A stretch of DNA of 24,000 nt from Methanobacteriota archaeon. Its GTDB lineage: Archaea > Thermoplasmatota > Thermoplasmata > SG8-5. This document shows positions 1,744 through 18,552 of this stretch, one piece after another. The DNA lies in the NCBI GenBank assembly GCA_013791785.1, contig VMTD01000001.1, forward strand, positions 1 to 24,000, read 5' to 3'. The translations under genes and the position numbers were made by a program. Numbering within the stretch: position 1 is the first letter of the stretch; every line of letters starts with the position of its first letter. The notes under the pieces were generated by a model. The model did not search any database and was not told the DNA's origin. It was given only the letters and a program-made list of their open reading frames with translations.

Positions 1744-4608
1744 TCACCAATCTATTGTCCATACAGTATCCGCTGGCACACGCACCCAGTACCCTTCTCC
1801 CGGCTTCATCACATATGAACCTCCCAGTACCTGTATGTAAGGCGATGATGCAGCAAATCCCTCCACCAGGTCGTACCCGGTGCCTGCCAGTGCCTCGGAT
1901 ATGGTTCTCGGGGTCAAGGTGGGATAACCAATCAGGTTCCAGCCGGGCCTCAAAGTTATATTGGTGGGTGTCGGCGCATTCCCGGTGACATTGAGGGTAC
2001 AGGGGCTGGTCGTGTGTACCCAGACCCCCATGGTCCTGTCGATGCCTGCAAGATTGTTGGTTGTCGCGCCCACGCGGTAGGTTTTCCAGGGCTGGCTCAT
2101 GTCGGTAATGTCATAATATTTCACAACGTCCCACTGGCCGGCAACGGAGGCCAGCGCGTCTTCGATGTCCGCACTTGCCAATTCCAGGGGGATAGAGATG
2201 AGGTTCCAGCCCGATATGAGCGGAACCTCGAAACTGGCATTATCGTTCTGAACGTAATAGGAGCGGTTCTCGAAAGAGATGGTCCCGTAGGAATTGTTCA
2301 TCCTGAACTGGACATCGTACCAGCCTGTCGCCAATGAGACAGTATCCCATGAATCGTAGAACCTGGCTTCGTAGGTCTGGTGAATGTCAGTGGAATAGAC
2401 AGTTTTCTCCCAATTTCCCCCCGGCACTTTCATCCATAATTCAGTCATGCCACCCCAAGCGACCGATGAAATGTTCACGACCCCGCTCACGGCAGAGCCA
2501 TTGGTCGGTTCCGTGTCCAGGGAGAAAGGACCCAATTTCGCTTCGATGGCATCCCACAGTTCGGTTCTCGGGTCATCGTAGTCCAGCGCCCATATTCCCA
2601 TGCCCGGTAAGTCAAGTTGGTTCACCACCTGGTACTTGAATTTCAGGGAAGTCGCGTTATCGAACCAGACCTGATGCCACTGTCCTGCTTCTTGATAATA
2701 GTACCAGGGACTTGAACTGGTGCTGTCCCATCGAAGAGTTGCGCCTGTGCTTGAAAGCTTTGTCATGGCCGAATTGTATGTGCGAGAGGATGCGGTTCCG
2801 TTCCTGGTCGCTCCGGGCGCGTCATGGCCGGTCGTTGCCACAGGCCAGTCAAACCCGAAGTATGGAACACCGTAAATGAACTTCTCCCTGCTGGCACCAT
2901 AGATATTTATCCATCTGTCTATCGCATGCCAGGCATCTATGTTGTTGCTCCAGAAAAGCGCACCACAGGGGCCTGTTGTCGCACTGCCGGCATAGAAATA
3001 ATCATAGCCCATGAGGAAGTAATAATCCACATAATTATTGATCGCCGGAAGCTGGGTGAAGCCATACGATGCCCACGGATAGGGCATCAGGCAGAGATGC
3101 ACCTCGTAGAGAAGATTCTCGGCCTTGAATGCCGTGTGTAGTTCCTGCATGAAAGCCAGAAGGTTCGCGTCGCTGCCTGACGGCGGATATTCCAGGTCTA
3201 TCATTATTCCATCCGCGTTTCCTGCGATTGTCTGGGCCAGCAGATTGGAAATCCCATTAGCCCGGGCAGCGGAGCTGGCAAGGAATGTCGAAACCGATGA
3301 AGAGCCGAACAGCGTCATGCTGAGCAGGACTTTTGTCCCGTTCTCGTGGCAACGGAGAACCAACGAGATCCAACTGCCTGGCCAGCTATTGTAATTCGTG
3401 ATATCACCAGCCGTGTTCATCTCAACCGAGAACCAGGCAAGGTGAGAGAGCTTGCCCTGCTGTAAAGAATCATAATCCGTTCCCATCCAGCTCGGGTAGA
3501 ATCCCACGTTCATGCGCGTCAGGTTCTTCTCGATTTCCGTGGCATTGAAAGTGTAACTTGCCGAGCACCATTCCACGCTGCCGCCCCACCAGAATGAGCG
3601 CCAGATTGTACCAGCATTATTTCTCATTCCCTTGGTAATGAACCGCATGCCATCGAACACCTGGCCCGCTATTGCGTATGAAGTTCCAGGACCGTTCCTG
3701 ACGTTAAGGGCCGTTGTAACCTGAATTTCGAACTGTGGCTGATTCACCGGCTTGGCGTATACATTACCTGAAATCATGTCAGCCGCGCACCAGGCATTGC
3801 GGTCGTCAAACCAGAAATTGTACCAGATGCTACCGGAGACGTCCTGCGTGCCGATGGCCACGTACATTTCCGCCAGATGAACTTGTCCCAGTGCTTGATA
3901 ATTATTACCTGCGCTATTTAGGCCCGGACCGGCACGCACATTGAGAGCGCCAGTATTGACCATGAACGAGAATGGCTCGTTCAATTCAACCCTGATGTGA
4001 TAGAAGCTGGCGCAGGTGAATGAACCGCCGAGTACGCCCCAGAATGACGCCCCATAAGTGTCCGTCGTATGGGCAGCTAATCCCAGGTCGCCTCCTCCCA
4101 CCGAAACCACAATCATGGCATGGGACCATCTGTCTCCAGCATCGGTGCCGAATATTACCACATCCCCTATTTCTGTATCGAGAGGTATTGTGACGTTTAC
4201 CCCCTCCACGCCATAACTGTAATCAACCGCCTGATAGCGAGTAAGGTGTTGGTGCAGGTAATCGCAGAATGGAATTGTGCCGTTACTGTTTGTGGCTGGC
4301 CTGTCGACATCCGGATAAACCCCGTAACCGCCGCCGTTCGTGCCCTGCCACAGTGACATGCCGCCAGCAATCAAACACTGGCTCACGAAATTGGCACAGT
4401 CCCCACCAGAACCGGAGAAATCATTGTAATGCGGATTTCTGGAATTGTACCACTGGTTCGCATAACCATAAGATGCATTGCGGAGGTAATATACACCCTG
4501 GGCTGTCGGCCCCCAGCCCGTGACCCCGTCCCCAGTGACTGGCGGGGGGATTGACAGCACGGTTGCAATCATGATGAGCCCCACGAGCAATGCAAGAGCT
4601 TTTCTCAT
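1744..4608 (-). CDS. Secreted multidomain protein with signal peptide, putative amidase (Amidase_6-like Cys peptidase), 2x SH3b, a GH18-like glycosidase, an Ig-like region and a duplicated C-terminal GWNLI module
   Basis: 954-aa ORF.
- Signal-like N-terminus: MRKALALLVGLIMIATVLSI.
- Amidase signature: GGDCANFVSQCLIAGG plus WSHAMIVV, about nt 3994-4491.
- Two ALNVR(A/N)GPG SH3b-like repeats, about nt 3769-3957 and 3553-3720.
- GH18-like region, about nt 2539-3513, with the motif DGIMIDLE at nt 3190-3213, plus YYFLMGYDY and GMGIWALDYD.
- Many N-x-S/T sequons.
- TATA-like box at 4633-4640 (minus strand tataaata), about 28 nt from the ATG. Confidence 0.85.
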   Translation of the reverse strand: MRKALALLVGLIMIATVLSIPPPVTGDGVTGWGPTAQGVYYLRNASYGYANQWYNSRNPHYNDFSGSGGDCANFVSQCLIAGGMSLWQGTNGGGYGVYPDVDRPATNSNGTIPFCDYLHQHLTRYQAVDYSYGVEGVNVTIPLDTEIGDVVIFGTDAGDRWSHAMIVVSVGGGDLGLAAHTTDTYGASFWGVLGGSFTCASFYHIRVELNEPFSFMVNTGALNVRAGPGLNSAGNNYQALGQVHLAEMYVAIGTQDVSGSIWYNFWFDDRNAWCAADMISGNVYAKPVNQPQFEIQVTTALNVRNGPGTSYAIAGQVFDGMRFITKGMRNNAGTIWRSFWWGGSVEWCSASYTFNATEIEKNLTRMNVGFYPSWMGTDYDSLQQGKLSHLAWFSVEMNTAGDITNYNSWPGSWISLVLRCHENGTKVLLSMTLFGSSSVSTFLASSAARANGISNLLAQTIAGNADGIMIDLEYPPSGSDANLLAFMQELHTAFKAENLLYEVHLCLMPYPWASYGFTQLPAINNYVDYYFLMGYDYFYAGSATTGPCGALFWSNNIDAWHAIDRWINIYGASREKFIYGVPYFGFDWPVATTGHDAPGATRNGTASSRTYNSAMTKLSSTGATLRWDSTSSSPWYYYQEAGQWHQVWFDNATSLKFKYQVVNQLDLPGMGIWALDYDDPRTELWDAIEAKLGPFSLDTEPTNGSAVSGVVNISSVAWGGMTELWMKVPGGNWEKTVYSTDIHQTYEARFYDSWDTVSLATGWYDVQFRMNNSYGTISFENRSYYVQNDNASFEVPLISGWNLISIPLELASADIEDALASVAGQWDVVKYYDITDMSQPWKTYRVGATTNNLAGIDRTMGVWVHTTSPCTLNVTGNAPTPTNITLRPGWNLIGYPTLTPRTISEALAGTGYDLVEGFAASSPYIQVLGGSYVMKPGEGYWVRVPADTVWTIDW

Positions 4609-4679: not shown

Positions 4680-6368
4680 TTATTTCTTAGCCTGAATCTT
4701 CGAATACGAGTCCTTGAGGCTCACGGTCCTGTTAAACACCGGCTTTCCGGGCGCCGAATCCAAATCAACGCAGAAATAACCCAGCCTCTCCAGCTGAACT
4801 CTGTCGCCTATCTTCAGGTCGGCGGTTGCCGGTTCCACTTTGCAGTCACTCAGAACAGTCAGTGATTCAGGGTTGAGGAACTGGGTGAATTCTTTCTCCT
4901 GGCCCATGGGGTCCTCCACCGTGAACAGTTTGTCGTAATTCCGCACTTCTGCGGAAACCGACTTGGAGGCCGATACCCAATGCATGGTGCTCTTCACCTT
5001 GCGCCCATCCGGGGAATTGCCTCCCCTGGTGGCCGGGTCCACGGTGCATCTGAGTTCCGTGATGTTGCCCTGGGAATCCTTGATCACGGAGTTGCAGGTG
5101 AGGAAATAAGCGTACCGGAGGCGTACCTCGCGGCCGGGAGCCAGCCTGAAGAATTTTTTCTCAGGGACTTCCATGAAATCGTCCCGCTCGATGAACAGTT
5201 CCCTGGTGAACGGAACCTTCCTGGTGCCGGCTTCCGGATTTTCAGGATTGTTGACGGCGTCCAAGAAATCGACATGGTCATCGGGCAGATTATCGATGAC
5301 GACCTTGAGCGGATTGAGAACGCCCATGAAACGGGGCGCGTTCCTGTTCAGGTCCTCCCTGACGCAGTGCTCCAGCACTTCAAGCGCTATGGTGTTGGAC
5401 TTCTTGGCGATTCCCGCCCTGCTGAGGAAGTCCTGGATTGCGGCCGCCGGGTACCCGCGCCGGCGCATTCCGGAGACAGTGGGCATCCTGGGGTCGTCCC
5501 AGCCGGTGACATGGCCCCGGTCCACCAGCAGCTTGAGGTACCGCTTGCTCATGATTGTGTAGGAGAGGTTCATCCTGGCGAATTCAATTTGCCTGGGGCG
5601 ATACGTACCCAGCTCGATGAGGAACCAGTCGTAGAGTGGACGATGATTCTCGAACTCGATGGAGCACATGGAGTGCGTGATTCGTTCGATGGAATCCTCC
5701 AGTCCGTGGGCCCAATCGTACATCGGATAGATGCACCACTTGTCACCGGCATGGGGGTGGCTGGCATGGAGAATTCTGTACATGATGGGGTCGCGCATGT
5801 TCATGTTTGAACTGGCCATGTCAATCTTCGCCCTCAGGGTCCTGGAGCCGTCCGGAAACTCGCCGTTCTTCATTCTCCCGAAAATATCGAGACTTTCTTC
5901 AATGGGGCGGTCCCTCCAGGGGCTCGGTTTGCCCGGCGTATTATAATCACCGCGGTACTCGCTAATCTGATCCGCCGTGAGTTCGCAGACATAGGCTTTG
6001 CCCTTCTTGATCAGGTCAATGGCAAAATCATACATCTGCTGGAAATAATCACTAGCATAGAATACGCGATCCTCAAAGTCCGCGCCGAGCCATGCAACGT
6101 CGCGTATTATGGAGTCTATGTACTCTTTCTCTTCTTTAATAGGATTGGTATCGTCGAAGCGAAGGTTGAACTTTCCGCCGAAATCCCTGGCGATGCAGTA
6201 ATTGAGCCAGATTGCCTTGGCATTGCCGATGTGGATGTAGCCGTTGGGCTCGGGCGGGAACCTGGTATGCACTCCATCATACCTACCTGCCCTGAGGTCT
6301 GCGACTATCTCTGCTCTCAGGAAATCCTGCTTGGCCAGTTCATCGAATTTCGGTTCGTTCCAGTTCAT
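4680..6368 (-). CDS. glnS: Glutaminyl-tRNA synthetase (glutamine--tRNA ligase), bacterial type
   Basis: The 562-aa ORF is collinear with E. coli GlnS along its whole length as I recall that sequence. Shared blocks include [11 protein letters not shown](I/L)[42 protein letters not shown] (KMSKS-type), [24 protein letters not shown] and PVFNRTV. The HIGH signature reads HIGN (nt 6222-6233). Confidence 0.93.
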
Positions 6369-6398: not shown

Positions 6399-6809
6399 TT
6401 ATAATTCTTTGCTGGTGACGACAAGCCCGGAATGCTTGACCCCCCGAACGGATTTCGTGGCATCGGAGAATTTTCTAACTTCGGCAGGAGAACCCCTGAT
6501 GGCCAGTATCTCAAGGCAGTTGTCATGGTCCAGATGGATGTGCATTGTGGAATAGATGGTAACGTGCGAGTCATGCTGCAGCGTCAGTAATTTATTCACT
6601 GTATCCGAAGTGTGATGGTCATACACCATGGTCACGATGCCGACGACTTCTCCCTGGCCAGTGTCCCAGGCATCGTCTATCATGCTGTTCCGGATGAGGT
6701 CGGCAATGGCCTTGGAACGATTTCCATAGCCCATTTTATCTATCTGGGTGTCGAATGATTCAAGCAGGTCGGTGGGGAGTGAAACCCCGAATCTCGTTAT
6801 CTCGTTCAT
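6399..6809 (-). CDS. nikR: Nickel-responsive transcriptional regulator NikR (ribbon-helix-helix plus ACT-like metal-binding domain)
   Basis: The N-terminus MNEITRFGVSLPTDLLESFD is a typical RHH beta-strand and helix. The C-terminal TMHIHLDHDNCLEI matches the NikR high-affinity Ni site pattern (H-x-H-x5-C). The ORF track starts at a GTG at 6821. I prefer the ATG at 6809 from the N-terminal alignment and the TATA position. The gene is divergent from the cbiM operon. Confidence 0.9.
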   Translation of the reverse strand: MNEITRFGVSLPTDLLESFDTQIDKMGYGNRSKAIADLIRNSMIDDAWDTGQGEVVGIVTMVYDHHTSDTVNKLLTLQHDSHVTIYSTMHIHLDHDNCLEILAIRGSPAEVRKFSDATKSVRGVKHSGLVVTSKEL

Positions 6810-6825
6810 GCCACTCGCCACTCCA

Positions 6826-6921: not shown

Positions 6922-7602
6922 ATGCACATACCGGACGGACTGATGGCCCCCGCAGTGGCGGCATTCGGATGGATTATCGCAATCGGCTTCCTGGCATTGA
7001 CAATGAAGGTGCTGAATAAAAAAATTAACGACCGCCAGATTACTCTCATGGCTGTTCTGTCAGCGGGAATTTTCGTCGCCCAGATGCTGAACTTCCCCAT
7101 CGGCGGCGGGACGACCGGACATCTCATCGGCGCGGCACTGGCTACCGTTATTCTCGGCCCGTTTGCCGGAATTTTGATTATTACGGTCATACTCATAATT
7201 CAGGCCCTGGTGTTCGGGGATGGCGGACTTACGGCACTGGGACTGAACATTCTCAACATGGCAGTCATCGGCTGCCTGGTGGCCTGGTATGTTTACAGGG
7301 CACTTCGCCGCGCGAATGAGAAGGCGGCAGTTTTCGCGGCGGCCTTTGCATCGGTATTTGTCGCAGCTCTGGCAGCGGCAGTGGAACTGGCTGTCAGCCA
7401 CTCCATCAGCGGCGGAACGTACGGAATAGCCGGAAGCATCGCATTTCCTGCCATGACAATTTACCACCTGTTCATCGGAATCGGCGAGGCAATTATCACG
7501 TCAGGTGTGGTGCTGTACATAGCCAGGGTTTCCCCGGGGATGCTCAGAATGCCGAAACTCACTTTCCTGAACAGGCCAAAGGAGGTGGTTCCGGATGCAT
7601 AA
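6922..7602 (+). CDS. cbiM: ECF transporter substrate-capture component CbiM/NikM (cobalt/nickel)
   Basis: 226-aa polytopic membrane ORF starting MHIPDG, the conserved metal-ligating N-terminus of CbiM/NikM. It is followed by translationally coupled N, Q and O components. The adjacent nikR favours nickel specificity; this is an inference. Confidence 0.9.
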   Translation: MHIPDGLMAPAVAAFGWIIAIGFLALTMKVLNKKINDRQITLMAVLSAGIFVAQMLNFPIGGGTTGHLIGAALATVILGPFAGILIITVILIIQALVFGDGGLTALGLNILNMAVIGCLVAWYVYRALRRANEKAAVFAAAFASVFVAALAAAVELAVSHSISGGTYGIAGSIAFPAMTIYHLFIGIGEAIITSGVVLYIARVSPGMLRMPKLTFLNRPKEVVPDA

Positions 7603-7879
7603 GCCAATCGACAGAAAGCATATAAAAATCATCGCAGGAATACTGGTGATATTCGCAATCGGCCTTGTGGGTTATTACCTGTTCTCCGCCGAATACGGCG
7701 ACGGGCTGGAGGTCACGATGGAAGAAGCTGGAGTCGGGGAATCCAAGCCGGTCTACACAGGCCCGCTGGATTACGGCGACAGTTACGCTTCATCGTTGGC
7801 CATGGGCATAATCGGCTTCTTCGTGACGCTGCTTGTGGGATTCCTGCTTGCAAGGTTGCTGAGGAAGAGCGATGCATGA
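7595..7879 (+). CDS. PDGLE-domain small membrane protein (NikN/CbiN-like accessory component)
   Basis: 94-aa ORF with two TM helices flanking EYGDGLEVTMEEAG, a PDGLE-like motif. Its start overlaps the cbiM stop by 8 nt (gATGCATAA). Confidence 0.7.
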   Translation: MHKPIDRKHIKIIAGILVIFAIGLVGYYLFSAEYGDGLEVTMEEAGVGESKPVYTGPLDYGDSYASSLAMGIIGFFVTLLVGFLLARLLRKSDA

Positions 7880-8588
7880 ATCGCCCGACTGCCGGCCAGG
7901 TAACTACACCCCCTTCGACCCGCGGACCAAGATTGTGGGAGTCGCATTCTTCGTGGTGGCTGTGGCATTGCTGACGGAAAATATTCTACTGCTATTTTCT
8001 GTCGTATTCATGCTCTGCCTGCTGGTCATCTCAGGAGTTTCCGGCACCCGCATAGGGAAAAGATATGCCATTGCACTGCCATTCATATTGCTGGCATCCG
8101 TTTCCATGTACCTGACTTCCGGCCAGGACAGGGCGATGGGCATGTTTCTGAGAATTTCCGCATCCGTTCTCGCCCTGGTGTTGCTGTCGGTAACAACCGC
8201 TTTCCACGACCTGCTGAACGGGCTTCAGAGGCTGAGAGTTCCAGGGCTGGTCGTGAATATGCTCATGTTCACCTATCGATACATTTTCGTCCTTACTGAA
8301 GAGATGGGCAGGATGAACGTTGCCAGGCGCGCCAGGGGTTACAGGGGTGGCGGAAGTCTCCTGAACAGGCACATCATGGGAACGATATCGAATACAGCCG
8401 GCATGCTGCTGGTCAGGGCGTACGAGCGTGGGCTTCGGGTGCACGACTCTCTCACTGCCAGGGGCTATGACGGCCGTATCAGAACGCTCAGCCGCCAGAA
8501 CCTGCAGGCCCGGGATGCGGCATTCTGCGGGTCGCTGGTTTTCATGGGACTGTTCCTCATTTCGGCGGAACTGGGGATGCTGGCATGA
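7872..8588 (+). CDS. cbiQ: ECF transporter transmembrane (T) component CbiQ/NikQ
   Basis: 238-aa membrane ORF in the position expected for CbiQ. It carries the conserved ARRARG-type loop (NVARRARGYRGG) of EcfT/CbiQ proteins. It has an 8-nt overlap with the upstream gene (gATGCATGA) and an ATGA overlap with cbiO. Confidence 0.85.
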   Translation: MHESPDCRPGNYTPFDPRTKIVGVAFFVVAVALLTENILLLFSVVFMLCLLVISGVSGTRIGKRYAIALPFILLASVSMYLTSGQDRAMGMFLRISASVLALVLLSVTTAFHDLLNGLQRLRVPGLVVNMLMFTYRYIFVLTEEMGRMNVARRARGYRGGGSLLNRHIMGTISNTAGMLLVRAYERGLRVHDSLTARGYDGRIRTLSRQNLQARDAAFCGSLVFMGLFLISAELGMLA

Positions 8589-9403
8589 CGGTGCTGCGGC
8601 TCTCGAAAGTATCATACGCATATGACGACGATTCAAACGCCCTTGATGAAATTGACCTTTCGGTCGCGGGGGGGGAATGCGTCGCGGTTATCGGACCCAA
8701 CGGTGCGGGAAAATCCACATTGCTCAGGGTGATGGCCGGGCTGCTGGCGCCCACCGCCGGAACCGTGGAAATGATGGGCAAGAAACTTGATCGGAAGAAA
8801 ACGGCCGCCGGGGGAAATATCGGAATTCTGTTCCAGGATCCGGATGATCAACTATTCATGCCCAGCGTCCGGGAGGATGTTGCCTTCGGGCCGCTGAACC
8901 AGGGCCTGGGTACGGAAGAGGCCGGGAAACGCGTTACGGAGGCGCTGAGACTTGTGGGCCTGCCGAACTTCGGAGAGAGAGTACCGCATCACCTCAGCTA
9001 CGGGGAAAAGAAGCGCGTGGCAATAGCCGGAATACTGGCAATGCGTCCGAAAATTCTTCTGCTTGACGAACCGACTGCCAACCTGGACCCCCGGGGCAGG
9101 GCCGAACTCATGGGGCTAATCGGAAAACTGGGATGCACCGTGGTGATGGCCACCCATGACATGGAAACGGCTGCGGCCATGGCCGACAGGGTGTGCGTCC
9201 TGAACCGAAAGGTACTGGCCACAGGGGAGAAACGCGAGATACTGACAAATAGAAAATTGCTGGAGAGCAACGGTCTTGAGATGCCCACCGTTGCCAGGCT
9301 GTTCGCGGAGATGGACGCTGACGGCGAGATGCCGCTGACGGTGGGGGAAGCGGCGGGATGGATGGCCAAGAGAAATGAGGGCCTTGACAGAAAAGAGAAA
9401 TAA
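8585..9403 (+). CDS. cbiO: ECF transporter ATP-binding protein CbiO/NikO (ABC ATPase)
   Basis: Walker A GPNGAGKST, ABC signature LSYGEKKRV, Walker B ILLLDEPTANLD, and an H-loop ATHD. Confidence 0.92.
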   Translation: MTVLRLSKVSYAYDDDSNALDEIDLSVAGGECVAVIGPNGAGKSTLLRVMAGLLAPTAGTVEMMGKKLDRKKTAAGGNIGILFQDPDDQLFMPSVREDVAFGPLNQGLGTEEAGKRVTEALRLVGLPNFGERVPHHLSYGEKKRVAIAGILAMRPKILLLDEPTANLDPRGRAELMGLIGKLGCTVVMATHDMETAAAMADRVCVLNRKVLATGEKREILTNRKLLESNGLEMPTVARLFAEMDADGEMPLTVGEAAGWMAKRNEGLDRKEK

Positions 9404-9449: not shown

Positions 9450-9521
9450 AGCCCCGTGGTGTAGTGGTTATCATTAGAGACTCTGGATCTCTGGACTCCA
9501 GTTCGAATCTGGACGGGGCTA
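9450..9521 (+). tRNA. tRNA-Gln (anticodon CUG)
   Basis: Hand-folded cloverleaf.
- Acceptor AGCCCCG/CGGGGCT (7 bp, A1:U72), discriminator A.
- D arm GTGT-AGTGGTTA-TCAT.
- Anticodon arm AGAGA-CTCTGGA-TCTCT, with CTG at positions 34-36.
- 4-nt variable loop.
- T arm TCCAG-TTCGAAT-CTGGA.
- No encoded CCA, and a T-rich tract (ttatttt, 9528-9534) just downstream. Confidence 0.9.
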
Positions 9522-9740
9522 CTCTCATTATTTTGTAAACATGCCCGTCCAGATGAAGAACTGGCCCCACGAGCGGCTGTATCTTCATTAATGAAACCGG
9601 AGGCCGCGAGCAAGACGAATTTGTCACACAAATTCGTCGATGGTCCGAATCTGGACCCCCAGCTCTTACACTGGATTACGATTCGTTCATACTTCGTGTC
9701 TGGGGCCTATGCAAGAATTTACATCTGCAACCAATGCCAC

Positions 9741-16310: not shown

Positions 16311-17921
16311 CTATAAATCGACTTTGACCCCATGTTTTTCAGGGTGTGGTTCTGAGAAGTGTTTGATTCTATCTGTCACAAATTTTTGATCCAGCGACGC
16401 CAGGAAATATCCGAGCCTCGGCCCTTTTGTATGGTTCAGGAATATTCGATACATCAGTTTGAACATATCACCTGCTTTGATTCCATGGCTTACGGCATTC
16501 TCATGGATAGCATTATGAATCTTGTCGGGGGTCCAATCAATTATTTTCATTTGGTCTAGAAGATCATCCAGTGCATACTTTTGCAGTTCAGAAATTTCTG
16601 TTGCAGGGGGTTCTATCTGAAGCTGAAATACCATATCCTCGGGTGCGTGGGTTGCGAGCCATACTTTTACCGCGTTCACTTTTATCTTCAAACGGCGTTC
16701 ATGCTCCGGTGTCATCTGGCTGAGATTGTCCGTGCGGGAGAGGGTCTCCAAAATGTGGTCCCAGTCCCTGCTGACCTGCACCGTGGAAATGAGATGCGAA
16801 TAGGATACCTGGCTGAATGTTTCCGGCACACCTGAAATCTGTGAAATCTCGTAGTTTCTTCCCACATCCTCGATTTCCTTTTCAGGAAGCCCGGTCTCCA
16901 GGCCGAAATATGCGCGCTCCGCGGTCTCATATTCCTCTGCCAGCTTCATAATTCCCAGGCCGAAATCAACGTCCTTGTGGCTTGTCGGATTGGAACGGAT
17001 AAAGAAGTAACGGGCGATTTCCGGTGTGGCGATATCAACAAATTCGCCGATAGTGAGTACCCGGCCAACGGATTTACCGAGCCTCTTGCCGCCTTCTGTG
17101 ACTATCCACTCATAAGGCACCGCCAGCGGTGCGGGCGAGTTGAAAATTTGCTCGCATATCGCTTTTCCTGTTTCGTAGGTTCCGCCCGCGGCCATTAGGT
17201 CCTTTCCCATGGGCTCGAACGTTACACCGAGATGGCTCCATCTGGCGGCCCATTCCACCCTCCAGGGCAATTTTCCTTGCCGAATTCCTGCTTGACCCTC
17301 GTGACCGCAGCCGGGGATGAAATTCTTTCCTGCGGTTCCGCCCTTGCAACGGTAGCTTACCTTCTGACCGTCCCAGGCATATGCTTGGGTCGTTAGTATG
17401 CAACCGCAGTTCTCGCAGATTGCAAAGAACGGCAGCCAGTTATCATCTCTCTCGCTTCCAGAAACCTCCTTGATGATTGCGGTTATTTCGGCGGCCTTGT
17501 CCAGAGCGATTTTCACGACCTCATCATACTTGCCGTCGCGATACATTTGGGCGACCGAGACCGGTTCCGGTCTAACATCTATTCTTTCAAGATTTTCAAG
17601 AAATGGCCTTGTGAAATGGTCAGCGAATGAATCGCAGCAACCGTCCGGGCAGGGCAGAACGTACGCTGGCTGTCCCAGATACTGCTCAAACTCCTTCGGT
17701 AACTGTGGCGGTATCTTCCTCAGCCCGTCCAGGTCGTCCATGGCCCAGATGGTCTTGCATTCACCGCCGCCTGCAATTATGGCCTTGGCTATGCCGTCGG
17801 AAATAATCAGATCCTCGGCGCTGCCAAGGTGCGGCTCTCCCGAGATGGAGGTGCCGCTCTCGACAAAGTGTTTCTTGCCCCTGCCAAGCAGCTGCTCGGC
17901 ATAAACGTCTACCCAGTGCAT
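16311..17921 (-). CDS. lysS: Lysyl-tRNA synthetase, class I (archaeal LysK type)
   Basis: 536-aa ORF. The N-terminus HWVDVYAEQLL...SGTSISGEPHLGS sits where the class I HIGH-like region is expected. Length and overall architecture match class I LysRS rather than the class II enzyme. Confidence 0.85.
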   Translation of the reverse strand: MHWVDVYAEQLLGRGKKHFVESGTSISGEPHLGSAEDLIISDGIAKAIIAGGGECKTIWAMDDLDGLRKIPPQLPKEFEQYLGQPAYVLPCPDGCCDSFADHFTRPFLENLERIDVRPEPVSVAQMYRDGKYDEVVKIALDKAAEITAIIKEVSGSERDDNWLPFFAICENCGCILTTQAYAWDGQKVSYRCKGGTAGKNFIPGCGHEGQAGIRQGKLPWRVEWAARWSHLGVTFEPMGKDLMAAGGTYETGKAICEQIFNSPAPLAVPYEWIVTEGGKRLGKSVGRVLTIGEFVDIATPEIARYFFIRSNPTSHKDVDFGLGIMKLAEEYETAERAYFGLETGLPEKEIEDVGRNYEISQISGVPETFSQVSYSHLISTVQVSRDWDHILETLSRTDNLSQMTPEHERRLKIKVNAVKVWLATHAPEDMVFQLQIEPPATEISELQKYALDDLLDQMKIIDWTPDKIHNAIHENAVSHGIKAGDMFKLMYRIFLNHTKGPRLGYFLASLDQKFVTDRIKHFSEPHPEKHGVKVDL

Positions 17922-17943: not shown

Positions 17944-18552
17944 TCAGGCCGAGAGGGTCCTGGCGCTGACGACGGAACGTATCGGAACGCCGTCGATTTC
18001 TTTCAATTGTGTCTTGTTTACAATCGTCAGGATGAGCTTCGGTTCAGCGCCCATGTTTTTCAGGTCTGTAATGGCCTTCTCCATGGTCTCGCCCGTACCG
18101 ATGACATCATCGACCACGACAATGTTCTTTCCGCTGACATTTGCATAATTGGAACTCAAGGCGCCGGAATTCACTTTTTTATCCGGGGGCCTGTAAACTG
18201 AAAACTCTATGTCCAACTCGTCCGATATATGAGTGGCCAGCGGTATGCCGTTTATGGCAACGCCAACGGCGGTCTGAACCTCGAAATCCCTGTTCTCGGC
18301 TTCCTCCAGAATTATATCAACGAGTATGGATGACATGAGCGATATACGGCTTCCGAAGACGCCCACCGAAGTCCAACCGATTTTGGTGTCCTGGGGTGTG
18401 TCCGTGGGAGCGGTCTTGGACTTTATGCCCTTGGTCAATAGCCAAACAATGGTATTTTCCGAGAGATGCAGTTCCCTGGCTATCTCCTTGTCGTTCATGC
18501 CGCTCTGCTTGAGCTCCAACGCCCTCTGGGCGATGCTGTCTATTCCTTTCAT
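17944..18552 (-). CDS. GfcR / PyrE-like protein (N-terminal HTH fused to a phosphoribosyltransferase domain), a transcriptional regulator
   Basis: An HTH (GMNDKEIARELHLSENTIVWLL) is followed by a PRTase fold with the PRPP-binding loop IVVVDDVIGTGET. This architecture is characteristic of the archaeal orotate-phosphoribosyltransferase-like regulator family. The gene is 22 nt upstream of lysS on the same strand. Confidence 0.82.
   Translation of the reverse strand: MKGIDSIAQRALELKQSGMNDKEIARELHLSENTIVWLLTKGIKSKTAPTDTPQDTKIGWTSVGVFGSRISLMSSILVDIILEEAENRDFEVQTAVGVAINGIPLATHISDELDIEFSVYRPPDKKVNSGALSSNYANVSGKNIVVVDDVIGTGETMEKAITDLKNMGAEPKLILTIVNKTQLKEIDGVPIRSVVSARTLSA

Follow-up and report, generated by a model that had tools for sequence, protein, structure and literature searches.

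The window analysed here comprises the first 24 kb of contig C101 in a metagenome-assembled genome (MAG) of a Thermoplasmata archaeon, G000 (2.62 Mb in 145 contigs, 92.66% complete, 0.34% contamination). Below, G-numbers designate sampled genomes, f-numbers families and L-numbers loci. On the minus strand of the window lies glnS, an open reading frame that runs uninterrupted from ATG to stop across positions 4680-6368 and encodes 562 residues. By family, it is a bacterial-type glutaminyl-tRNA synthetase (GlnRS), and its product is most likely the sole route to Gln-tRNAGln in the window's genus. What is said of its function we infer from sequence throughout. The features that carry the argument are:

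4680..6368, minus strand: glnS, bacterial-type GlnRS, 562 residues (assigned from TIGR00440, Pfam, structure match, residues and dN/dS)
6222..6233, minus strand: HIGN variant of the HIGH signature, residues 46-49 (from alignment)
5544..5552, minus strand: MSK of the KMSKS-type signature (IMSKR), with Lys275 corresponding to E. coli Lys270 (from alignment)
9450..9522, plus strand: tRNA-Gln(CUG), 72 nt to A73, with a 16-nt D-arm and no encoded CCA (ARAGORN, feature table)

Profile models distinguish the glnS product from glutamyl-tRNA synthetase (GluRS). It scores 703.5 bits against the glnS equivalog TIGR00440 (cut-off 425.8; NCBIfam) and remains under the cut-off of two GluRS models: 360.3 bits against gltX_arch, the archaeal GluRS model (cut-off 401.75; NCBIfam); and 291 bits against PRK04156 (cut-off 516). 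The Pfam domains PF00749, PF03950 and PF20974 represent the class I E/Q catalytic domain and two β-barrel anticodon-binding domains. The nearest structures are bacterial GlnRS. The top match is the P. aeruginosa enzyme 5BNZ (673 bits), E. coli GlnRS 1QTQ and related entries match at 645 bits, and the product is collinear with solved bacterial GlnRS across residues 14-558. A preliminary description of this DNA, made from the letters alone, had called the gene a true bacterial-type GlnRS and not a GluRS, and these data confirm that assignment.

The residues at the active site and the tRNA interface are consistent with this identity. GlnRS and archaeal non-discriminating GluRS (ND-GluRS) can be told apart by Cys229, His215, the G36-recognition loop, the unpairing loop and the anticodon residues (PMC2978374). 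These positions were read from an alignment that combined 40 GlnRS of Thermoplasmata with 80 of bacteria; E. coli GlnS from NC_000913 served as the numbering reference. The glnS product keeps the glutamine pocket: Arg30, Asp66, Tyr211, His215, Ser227, Cys229 and Gln255. Of these, Cys229 (an arginine in GluRS), His215 (which holds Arg30), Tyr211 and Gln255 are features of the window protein and of 39 of the 40 archaeal sequences. It also keeps the anticodon readers Arg341, Arg402, Arg410, Arg412, Gln517, Glu519 and Arg520. The loop for G36 recognition (E. coli 392-407, which includes Arg402) aligns without gaps, and the unpairing loop (E. coli 132-141), which opens the first acceptor pair, is of equal length. 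Finally, the IMSKR signature contains the catalytic lysine, and this column of the MSK motif is invariant across the archaeal and bacterial sequences aligned.

The first class I signature is altered: it reads HIGN, with the first histidine kept and the second replaced by asparagine. The preliminary description had placed this variant at nt 6222-6233 and advised a comparison with other GlnRS. The variant is real, and the comparison limits it to four sister species (G000, G015, G016 and G021). HIGH is found in 30 archaeal and 76 of the 80 bacterial sequences; the sister family f4 has HIGS or HLGS at this position, and HLGS occurs in one Dehalococcoidia sequence. In the larger of the two trees described below, the HIGN group and f4 are sisters, with a support of 94 in the Shimodaira-Hasegawa-like approximate likelihood ratio test (SH-aLRT), so a single loss of the second histidine, in the ancestor that they share, is probable. 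The signature of TrpRS, TIGN, has asparagine at the last position of HIGH, and this is the normal, active state of that enzyme (PMC3684856). By analogy, HIGN is plausibly a tolerated catalytic variant of an active GlnRS.

Other substitutions lie closer to the tRNA. The acceptor-contacting residues Leu136 and Pro181 are replaced by tyrosine and serine, respectively, and within the genus both changes are confined to the window protein. Residue 136 forms the tip of the unpairing loop; tyrosine is shared here with family f4, and most other sequences have leucine. Asp235 is replaced by asparagine, which is common among archaeal GlnRS and found in some bacterial ones. A search of the alignment for clade-specific substitutions returned four weak positions only and no clear signature of adaptation.

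If HIGN and the acceptor-site changes weakened the enzyme, or accompanied its re-purposing, the window protein could be a GlnRS-derived paralogue that no longer serves as the housekeeping GlnRS. The private substitutions at residues 136 and 181 fit such a history, and a degenerate copy is known in another family. This is the GlnRS of G031 (L132, G031:C120:2752-4981, family f14), which has QLGH for HIGH and changes at each of Tyr211, His215, Ser227 and Arg341; G031 retains gatD, and its GlnRS looks decaying or re-purposed. In the window protein, by contrast, the glutamine-pocket, KMSKS and anticodon residues are all intact. Moreover, HIGN is kept in four species under purifying selection, with a ratio of nonsynonymous to synonymous substitution rates (dN/dS) of 0.07-0.11 within the group; pairwise values span 0.07-0.19 within the genus and 0.09-0.19 between the window gene and its congeners, with dS near saturation in the deeper pairs. 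The asparagine at the same motif position is catalytic in TrpRS, and in G000 no alternative source of Gln-tRNAGln can be detected. There is accordingly little chance that the protein has left its housekeeping role.

The second line of evidence concerns the indirect route, in which ND-GluRS mischarges tRNAGln and the amidotransferase GatDE completes the product. Hidden Markov model (HMM) searches of the six-frame translated genome gave no match for gatD, gatE or gatB in G000; the same searches were positive in control genomes. No remnant of GatD or GatE was found in G000 by tblastn with queries from relatives of the same order. In family f4, gatE is preceded by two genes whose homologues in G000 are mid-contig on C10 and are followed by neither gatE nor gatD. 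The genome does encode a single archaeal GluRS (707 bits) and an AsnRS (467.7 bits), and both GlnRS and AsnRS score above their cut-offs. The genome-wide check proposed in the preliminary description thus found the archaeal GluRS and none of the three gat genes. Within the 92.66% completeness of the MAG, G000 shows the combination expected of direct charging only: no GatDE or GatCAB found, with GlnRS and AsnRS present. With no gatD, gatE or gatB found in G000, direct glutaminylation is the likely sole route.

The pattern extends across most of the genus, for which eight species-level genomes including G000 were sampled. Seven have glnS, the copy in G019 being cut by a contig end. Seven also lack both gatD and gatE, namely G000 and six of its seven congeners (77-93% complete). 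In the remaining congener, G018 (72% complete), no glnS is seen, and a contig of 4.4 kb carries gatE-gatD. The GatD encoded there is 89.5% identical to the GatD of another genus of the same family, and both tRNAGln genes of G018 are 100% identical to those of the window's genome. The G018 gatE-gatD pair is either a retained ancestral state, which would make the loss incomplete in the genus, or a mis-binned contig.

An alternative is that GatDE is present in G000 and was left unassembled or unbinned, making GlnRS a redundant second route, as in many Thermoplasmatota that have both. G000 is a fragmented and incomplete assembly, the genes beyond gatE in G018 lie in G000 only 641 nt from a contig end, and G018 itself carries the pair. 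Coexistence is also common: glnS and gatD occur together in f2, f3, f4 and f17, and in 46 of 73 GlnRS-bearing genomes of other classes. Set against this, joint loss of gatD and gatE from G000 and six congeners by incompleteness alone is very unlikely, close-relative queries recover no remnant, and the f4-type upstream flank is located in mid-contig without gatED. The recurrence of lineages that have GlnRS and no GatDE also argues against a missed pair. In the window's class, where gatD is present in 366 of 401 sampled members, the glnS-bearing families f22 (0 of 6 with gatD) and f29 (0 of 2) likewise lack gatD and gatE. In other classes, 27 of the 73 GlnRS-bearing genomes are without gatD, including all of f66 (0 of 4 with gatD), all of f37 and two single-contig f47 genomes. 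On balance, we consider a hidden GatDE improbable. Loss of the indirect route seems instead to have been repeated and, in these samples, to have occurred mainly where GlnRS is present.

Within the window's order, the GatE of families f1 and f4 is divergent. The four sequences (L200 G018:C110, L199 G006:C44, L209 G007:C28 and L208 G013:C74) score ~350-380 bits, compared with 580-720 in other families. In three of the four, the match to the gatE model ends at ~555-563 of 622 positions; in G013 it reaches 618. The divergent C-terminal part is the region that binds the tRNA D-loop, and it is in this same order that the tRNAGln D-loop is one base shorter.

The tRNA substrates are the third consideration. 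The window contains one tRNA (ARAGORN), tRNA-Gln(CUG), with A1:U72, G2:C71, C3:G70 and A73. It begins 3.08 kb from the glnS start, in line with the preliminary description of a tRNA-Gln ~3 kb from the gene that has A1:U72 and no encoded CCA. A survey of 68 genomes returned 105 distinct tRNAGln genes from 60 of them, and all 105 have A1:U72 and G2:C71. The D-arm is what varies. In GatDE-only families outside f1, every tRNAGln combines a D-arm of 17 nt with a variable loop of 4 nt (73 nt), in 25 of 25 intron-free genes and in both intron-bearing ones. GlnRS-bearing genomes have short tRNAGln in addition, or exclusively: a 15-nt D-arm (71 nt) in f6, f17, f22, f23 and f29; and a 16-nt D-arm (72 nt) in the window's order and f19. 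In genomes with GlnRS and no gatD, 30 of 33 tRNAGln genes have a 15- or 16-nt D-arm. In two-route genomes, the short tRNAGln adjoins glnS, and the canonical 73-nt forms are on its other side or elsewhere. Both tRNAGln of G000 are of the 72-nt kind and keep A73, and their D-loop is shorter by one base than that of any sampled GatDE-only relative.

For comparison, bacterial tRNAGln (four E. coli genes and eleven beside bacterial glnS) have a 15-16-nt D-arm, U1:A72 and mostly G73. G73 is also seen in the archaeal families f6 and f29 and in some GatDE-only families. A tRNAGln gene also adjoins several glnS genes of bacteria. Co-transfer of the short-D-loop tRNAGln from bacteria along with glnS is nonetheless disfavoured, as in a by-eye comparison the acceptor stem and most other positions match canonical archaeal tRNAGln and not the bacterial ones. 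The favoured origin of the short form is contraction of the native tRNA.

GatDE is reported to read both A1:U72, an identity pair, and the D-loop of tRNAGln (PMC2330236). This makes it plausible that contraction of the D-loop favours the use of tRNAGln by GlnRS over its recognition by GatDE and GluRS. One possibility would be that shrinkage of the D-arm from 17 to 15-16 nt was the adaptive step that made an archaeal tRNAGln a GlnRS substrate, perhaps while weakening its recognition by GatDE and ND-GluRS; the genus would then represent a completed switch from the indirect to the direct route, with A1:U72 and A73 unchanged. This fuller proposal is tentative, and we place it at somewhat short of an even chance.

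Unusual tRNA-Gln-like genes were encountered elsewhere in the survey. At L235 421-493 (G532, f47), one lies beside tRNA-Gln(UUG) and tRNA-Glu; ARAGORN gives it no assignment, and its anticodon is readable as UUA, which would make it a reader of the stop codon UAA. Two others, L113 2081-2156 (G036, f5) and L244 2223-2295 (G403, f38), stand just 3' of glnS and have C at position 33 of the anticodon loop, where U is nearly universal.

The distribution and phylogeny of glnS suggest that it is old in the phylum. In the window's order, glnS is above the cut-off in 14 of 22 genomes and in all four families; the truncated G019 copy, which falls below the cut-off, would make 15. It is present in 39 of 401 sampled species of the class, and in 74 of 401 sampled species and 41 of 162 genera of the phylum. 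Two maximum-likelihood (ML) trees were examined. The first combined 40 GlnRS of the class with 80 of the nearest bacterial ones and the E. coli enzyme; four archaeal GluRS served as outgroup. A single clade (SH-aLRT 99), nested among bacterial sequences, takes in 39 of the 40 class sequences. In the second, 20 GlnRS of other classes were added and three partial sequences removed, and the 57 sampled Thermoplasmatota GlnRS all fall into a single clade (SH-aLRT 97), again nested in bacterial sequences. Within the archaeal clade, most families are monophyletic, the classes interleave and the window's genus is non-monophyletic. These last two features reflect either exchange within the phylum or unreliable deep nodes.

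Neither tree fixes a single bacterial phylum as donor, the nearest bacterial neighbours differing between them at SH-aLRT 83-91: Planctomycetota, Sumerlaeota, Hydrogenedentota and one Chloroflexi sequence in the first; Chloroflexota and one Thermodesulfobacteriota sequence in the second. Taken in aggregate, these data indicate that glnS is an old, phylum-wide import from bacteria and not a local acquisition. The horizontal acquisition suggested in the preliminary description therefore stands as to its bacterial source, the archaeal clade being nested in bacteria. It does not stand as a recent or local event, given the single clade of 57, the spread over 74 species, the shared synteny, the native-like composition and the purifying selection. 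That description had also allowed for a large, vertically inherited and already described archaeal clade. The clade is indeed large and mostly vertical, but the literature consulted holds no prior description of it.

A recent, genome-specific acquisition, or a bacterial fragment mis-assembled or mis-binned in an archaeal MAG, would also place a bacterial-type gene at this position. Bacterial GlnRS are 57-66% identical to the window enzyme, as near to it as those of other Thermoplasmata families, and local GC reaches 0.575 at 5001-6000 against a genome mean of 0.488. The nearest relatives of the enzyme are archaeal, however, at 78-80% identity. Recent acquisition is ruled out by the monophyletic, phylum-wide clade together with a native-like GC content at third codon positions (GC3; 0.72 in glnS, 0.58-0.71 in neighbouring genes). 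Contamination or chimerism is ruled out by the archaeal genes on both sides of glnS, whose order is repeated on long contigs of relatives, and by the low contamination estimate. Together, these observations leave such an origin with a negligible probability, and glnS is best regarded as a long-standing archaeal gene of bacterial descent.

The neighbouring genes in the window include:

6399..6821, minus strand: nikR, directly upstream of glnS on the same strand (NF003381, 168 bits)
6922..9403, plus strand: cbiM-cbiN-cbiQ-cbiO, an energy-coupling factor (ECF) metal transporter between nikR and tRNA-Gln (Pfam CbiM, CbiQ and ABC_tran)
16311..17921, minus strand: lysS, archaeal class I LysRS (TIGR00467, 432.8 bits)
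17944..18552, minus strand: gfcR-like regulator with a phosphoribosyltransferase (PRTase) domain (NF002620, 199 bits, cut-off 115)

The window cbiM is slightly under the NCBIfam cut-off of its model. The window also encodes an archaeal-type KaiC ATPase (NCBIfam), and G000 contains an archaeal 16S rRNA. The closest GlnRS in the reference-genome collection, at 78% identity, is encoded on a 113-kb contig titled 'uncultured Thermoplasmata archaeon', and the order kaiC-gfcR-lysS-tRNAGln-nikR-glnS-GH18 of the window is repeated there. The LysRS, the GfcR-like regulator, the KaiC, the rRNA and this repeated gene order bear out the earlier view of an archaeal locus, and they answer the question of contig taxonomy that it had raised.

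Gene order elsewhere in the phylum provides evidence for how glnS arrived. In families f1, f2, f3, f6, f17 and f22, glnS adjoins tRNA-Gln(CUG), which is itself located just 3' of lysS. The gfcR-lysS pair is kept in G021, G019, G003, G004 and G073. In the last of these (family f23), gfcR-lysS-tRNAGln is present without glnS, and other f23 members carry glnS. In 13 GatDE-only families, tRNA-Gln(CUG) is not beside lysS. Given the shared lysS-tRNAGln-glnS synteny and the separate tRNA of the GatDE-only families, the simplest reading is that glnS inserted once, next to tRNA-Gln, in a shared ancestor. This module appears stretched in the window: nikR and cbiMNQO stand between glnS and the tRNA, and cassettes of ~6.8 kb between the tRNA and lysS. 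The cbiMNQO genes between tRNA-Gln and nikR are present in G015, G017 and G020 and absent from G021 and G016.

Two variations on this arrangement were observed. In G004 (family f3; L230 G004:C99 and L086 G004:C41), the gfcR-lysS-tRNAGln site is followed by a GluRS gene, and glnS is elsewhere, next to tRNA-Gly. The G004 GlnRS groups with a sequence of another class (G403; SH-aLRT 95), which suggests that glnS was replaced in this genome by transfer within the phylum. In G021 and G020, a partial copy of tRNA-Gln(CUG) matches the first 58-59 nt and then diverges, 170-240 bp from the intact gene (L097 412-484, G021:C8; L144, G020:C159:560-618). These partial copies may be the scar of an insertion at the tRNA.

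Immediately around glnS, the spacer from the nikR stop to the glnS start is 30 nt long and carries the Shine-Dalgarno-like GGGAGAGG. This favours co-transcription of glnS with nikR over a leaderless promoter, and glnS is probably part of such a unit. Leaderless TATA promoters, which the preliminary description counted among the archaeal features of the surrounding genes, are not borne out for glnS. The nikR-glnS pair was found in every congener examined (G015, G016, G017, G020 and G021). This arrangement apparently puts a nickel-responsive regulator (6399-6821) and a housekeeping synthetase (4680-6368) in one transcription unit. Directly downstream of glnS, positions 1744-4608 encode a 954-residue protein with Amidase_6 and GH18 domains, an architecture like that of bacterial cell-wall hydrolases; this protein is kept in G015, G016 and G021.

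The best explanation of the data as a whole, which we regard as highly probable, is that glnS is of bacterial descent, encodes a working enzyme, provides the only route to Gln-tRNAGln in the genus and derives from one early transfer. The proposed sequence of events likely involves: a single entry of the glnS ancestor into an early member of the Thermoplasmatota; settlement beside tRNA-Gln(CUG), downstream of lysS; and then mostly vertical inheritance, with some exchange inside the phylum. Many lineages would have kept GlnRS alongside the archaeal indirect route of ND-GluRS followed by GatDE, which the window's genus would have lost. Here, both isoacceptors of tRNAGln, the CUG form of the window and the UUG form encoded on contig C69, would receive glutamine directly from GlnRS, which would read the YUG anticodon through the residues that the E. 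coli enzyme uses. This requires activity on a tRNA with A1:U72 and A73. Asparagine would likewise be charged directly, by AsnRS, and GluRS would no longer mischarge tRNAGln. The tRNAGln would keep the archaeal acceptor end, with a D-loop shrunk towards the size of bacterial tRNAGln, to possible adaptive effect.

Several observations weigh against this explanation. Archaeal tRNAGln has been reported not to be a substrate of bacterial or yeast GlnRS (Tumbula 2000, as cited in PMC8762117 and PMC9499178), and both tRNAGln of G000 retain the A1:U72 pair and A73. The enzyme itself lacks the second histidine of HIGH and differs at Leu136 and Pro181, which contact the acceptor. In addition, the congener G018 has gatE-gatD and no glnS, and in a MAG of 145 contigs the absence of gatDE is inferred and not proven.

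Comparison with known systems places the window enzyme between two familiar arrangements. It has in common with bacterial GlnRS (E. coli GlnS, 1GTS and 1QTQ; P. aeruginosa, 5BNZ; TIGR00440) the length, domain order, glutamine pocket, KMSKS lysine, anticodon residues and both loops. It differs in its archaeal host, in HIGN for HIGH, and in tyrosine for Leu136, serine for Pro181 and asparagine for Asp235. Its predicted substrates have A1:U72, C3:G70 (or U3:A70) and A73, in contrast to U1:A72, G3:C70 and G73 in bacterial tRNAGln. With the archaeal indirect pathway (ND-GluRS and GatDE; M. thermautotrophicus, 3AII and 2D6F), the proposed system shares the end product Gln-tRNAGln, the A1:U72 acceptor end and an archaeal-type GluRS that is still encoded. 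Unlike that pathway, it has no detectable gatD or gatE in G000 and a D-loop one base shorter than in GatDE-only relatives.

The closest comparison is with the GlnRS/tRNAGln modules of other Thermoplasmatota, which share the protein clade and the glnS-tRNA-Gln linkage with the window. In many of those lineages GatDE is retained, the tRNA has G73 and two tRNAGln genes directly flank glnS. In the window's genome, by contrast, GatDE was not found, both tRNAs have A73, the linkage extends over 3 kb via nikR-cbiMNQO, and the signature is HIGN. Outside the phylum, a GlnRS gene beside cox genes is mentioned in passing for Heimdallarchaeia (Asgard) in a 2024 preprint (bioRxiv 10.1101/2024.07.04.601786).

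Archaea have been stated to lack GlnRS (PMC2330236, 2008; PMC9499178, 2022), none was found in the archaeal genomes analysed in 2016 (PMC5388404), and 'almost all archaea' are described as without it in PMC8762117 (2022). The absence has been explained by incompatibility of archaeal tRNAGln (A1:U72, A73) and by co-evolution with GatDE (PMC2330236, PMC5388404, PMC9499178). No published description of GlnRS in Thermoplasmata was found in open-access full text. What the window adds is: a state without GatDE in which the tRNAs have A73; the pattern of D-loop lengths; lysS-tRNAGln-glnS as the ancestral anchor; the subclade with HIGN; and the pairing of nikR with glnS.

G000 and about one fifth of the Thermoplasmatota species sampled contradict the statement that no archaeon has GlnRS, and the window's genus appears to have dropped GatDE yet kept A1:U72 and A73. 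The old question of why archaea should lack this enzyme thereby becomes experimentally tractable: what enables a bacterial-type GlnRS to use an archaeal tRNAGln, and what prevents mischarging by GluRS without GatDE. Three states coexist in the Thermoplasmatota: GatDE alone; the two routes together, often with two types of tRNAGln; and GlnRS alone. This represents a natural series for the replacement of part of the translation apparatus, and it also offers candidate orthogonal synthetase/tRNA pairs. If the D-loop proposal is correct, the switch to direct glutaminylation would have been made without altering A1:U72 or A73, the features long proposed to bar GlnRS from archaea.

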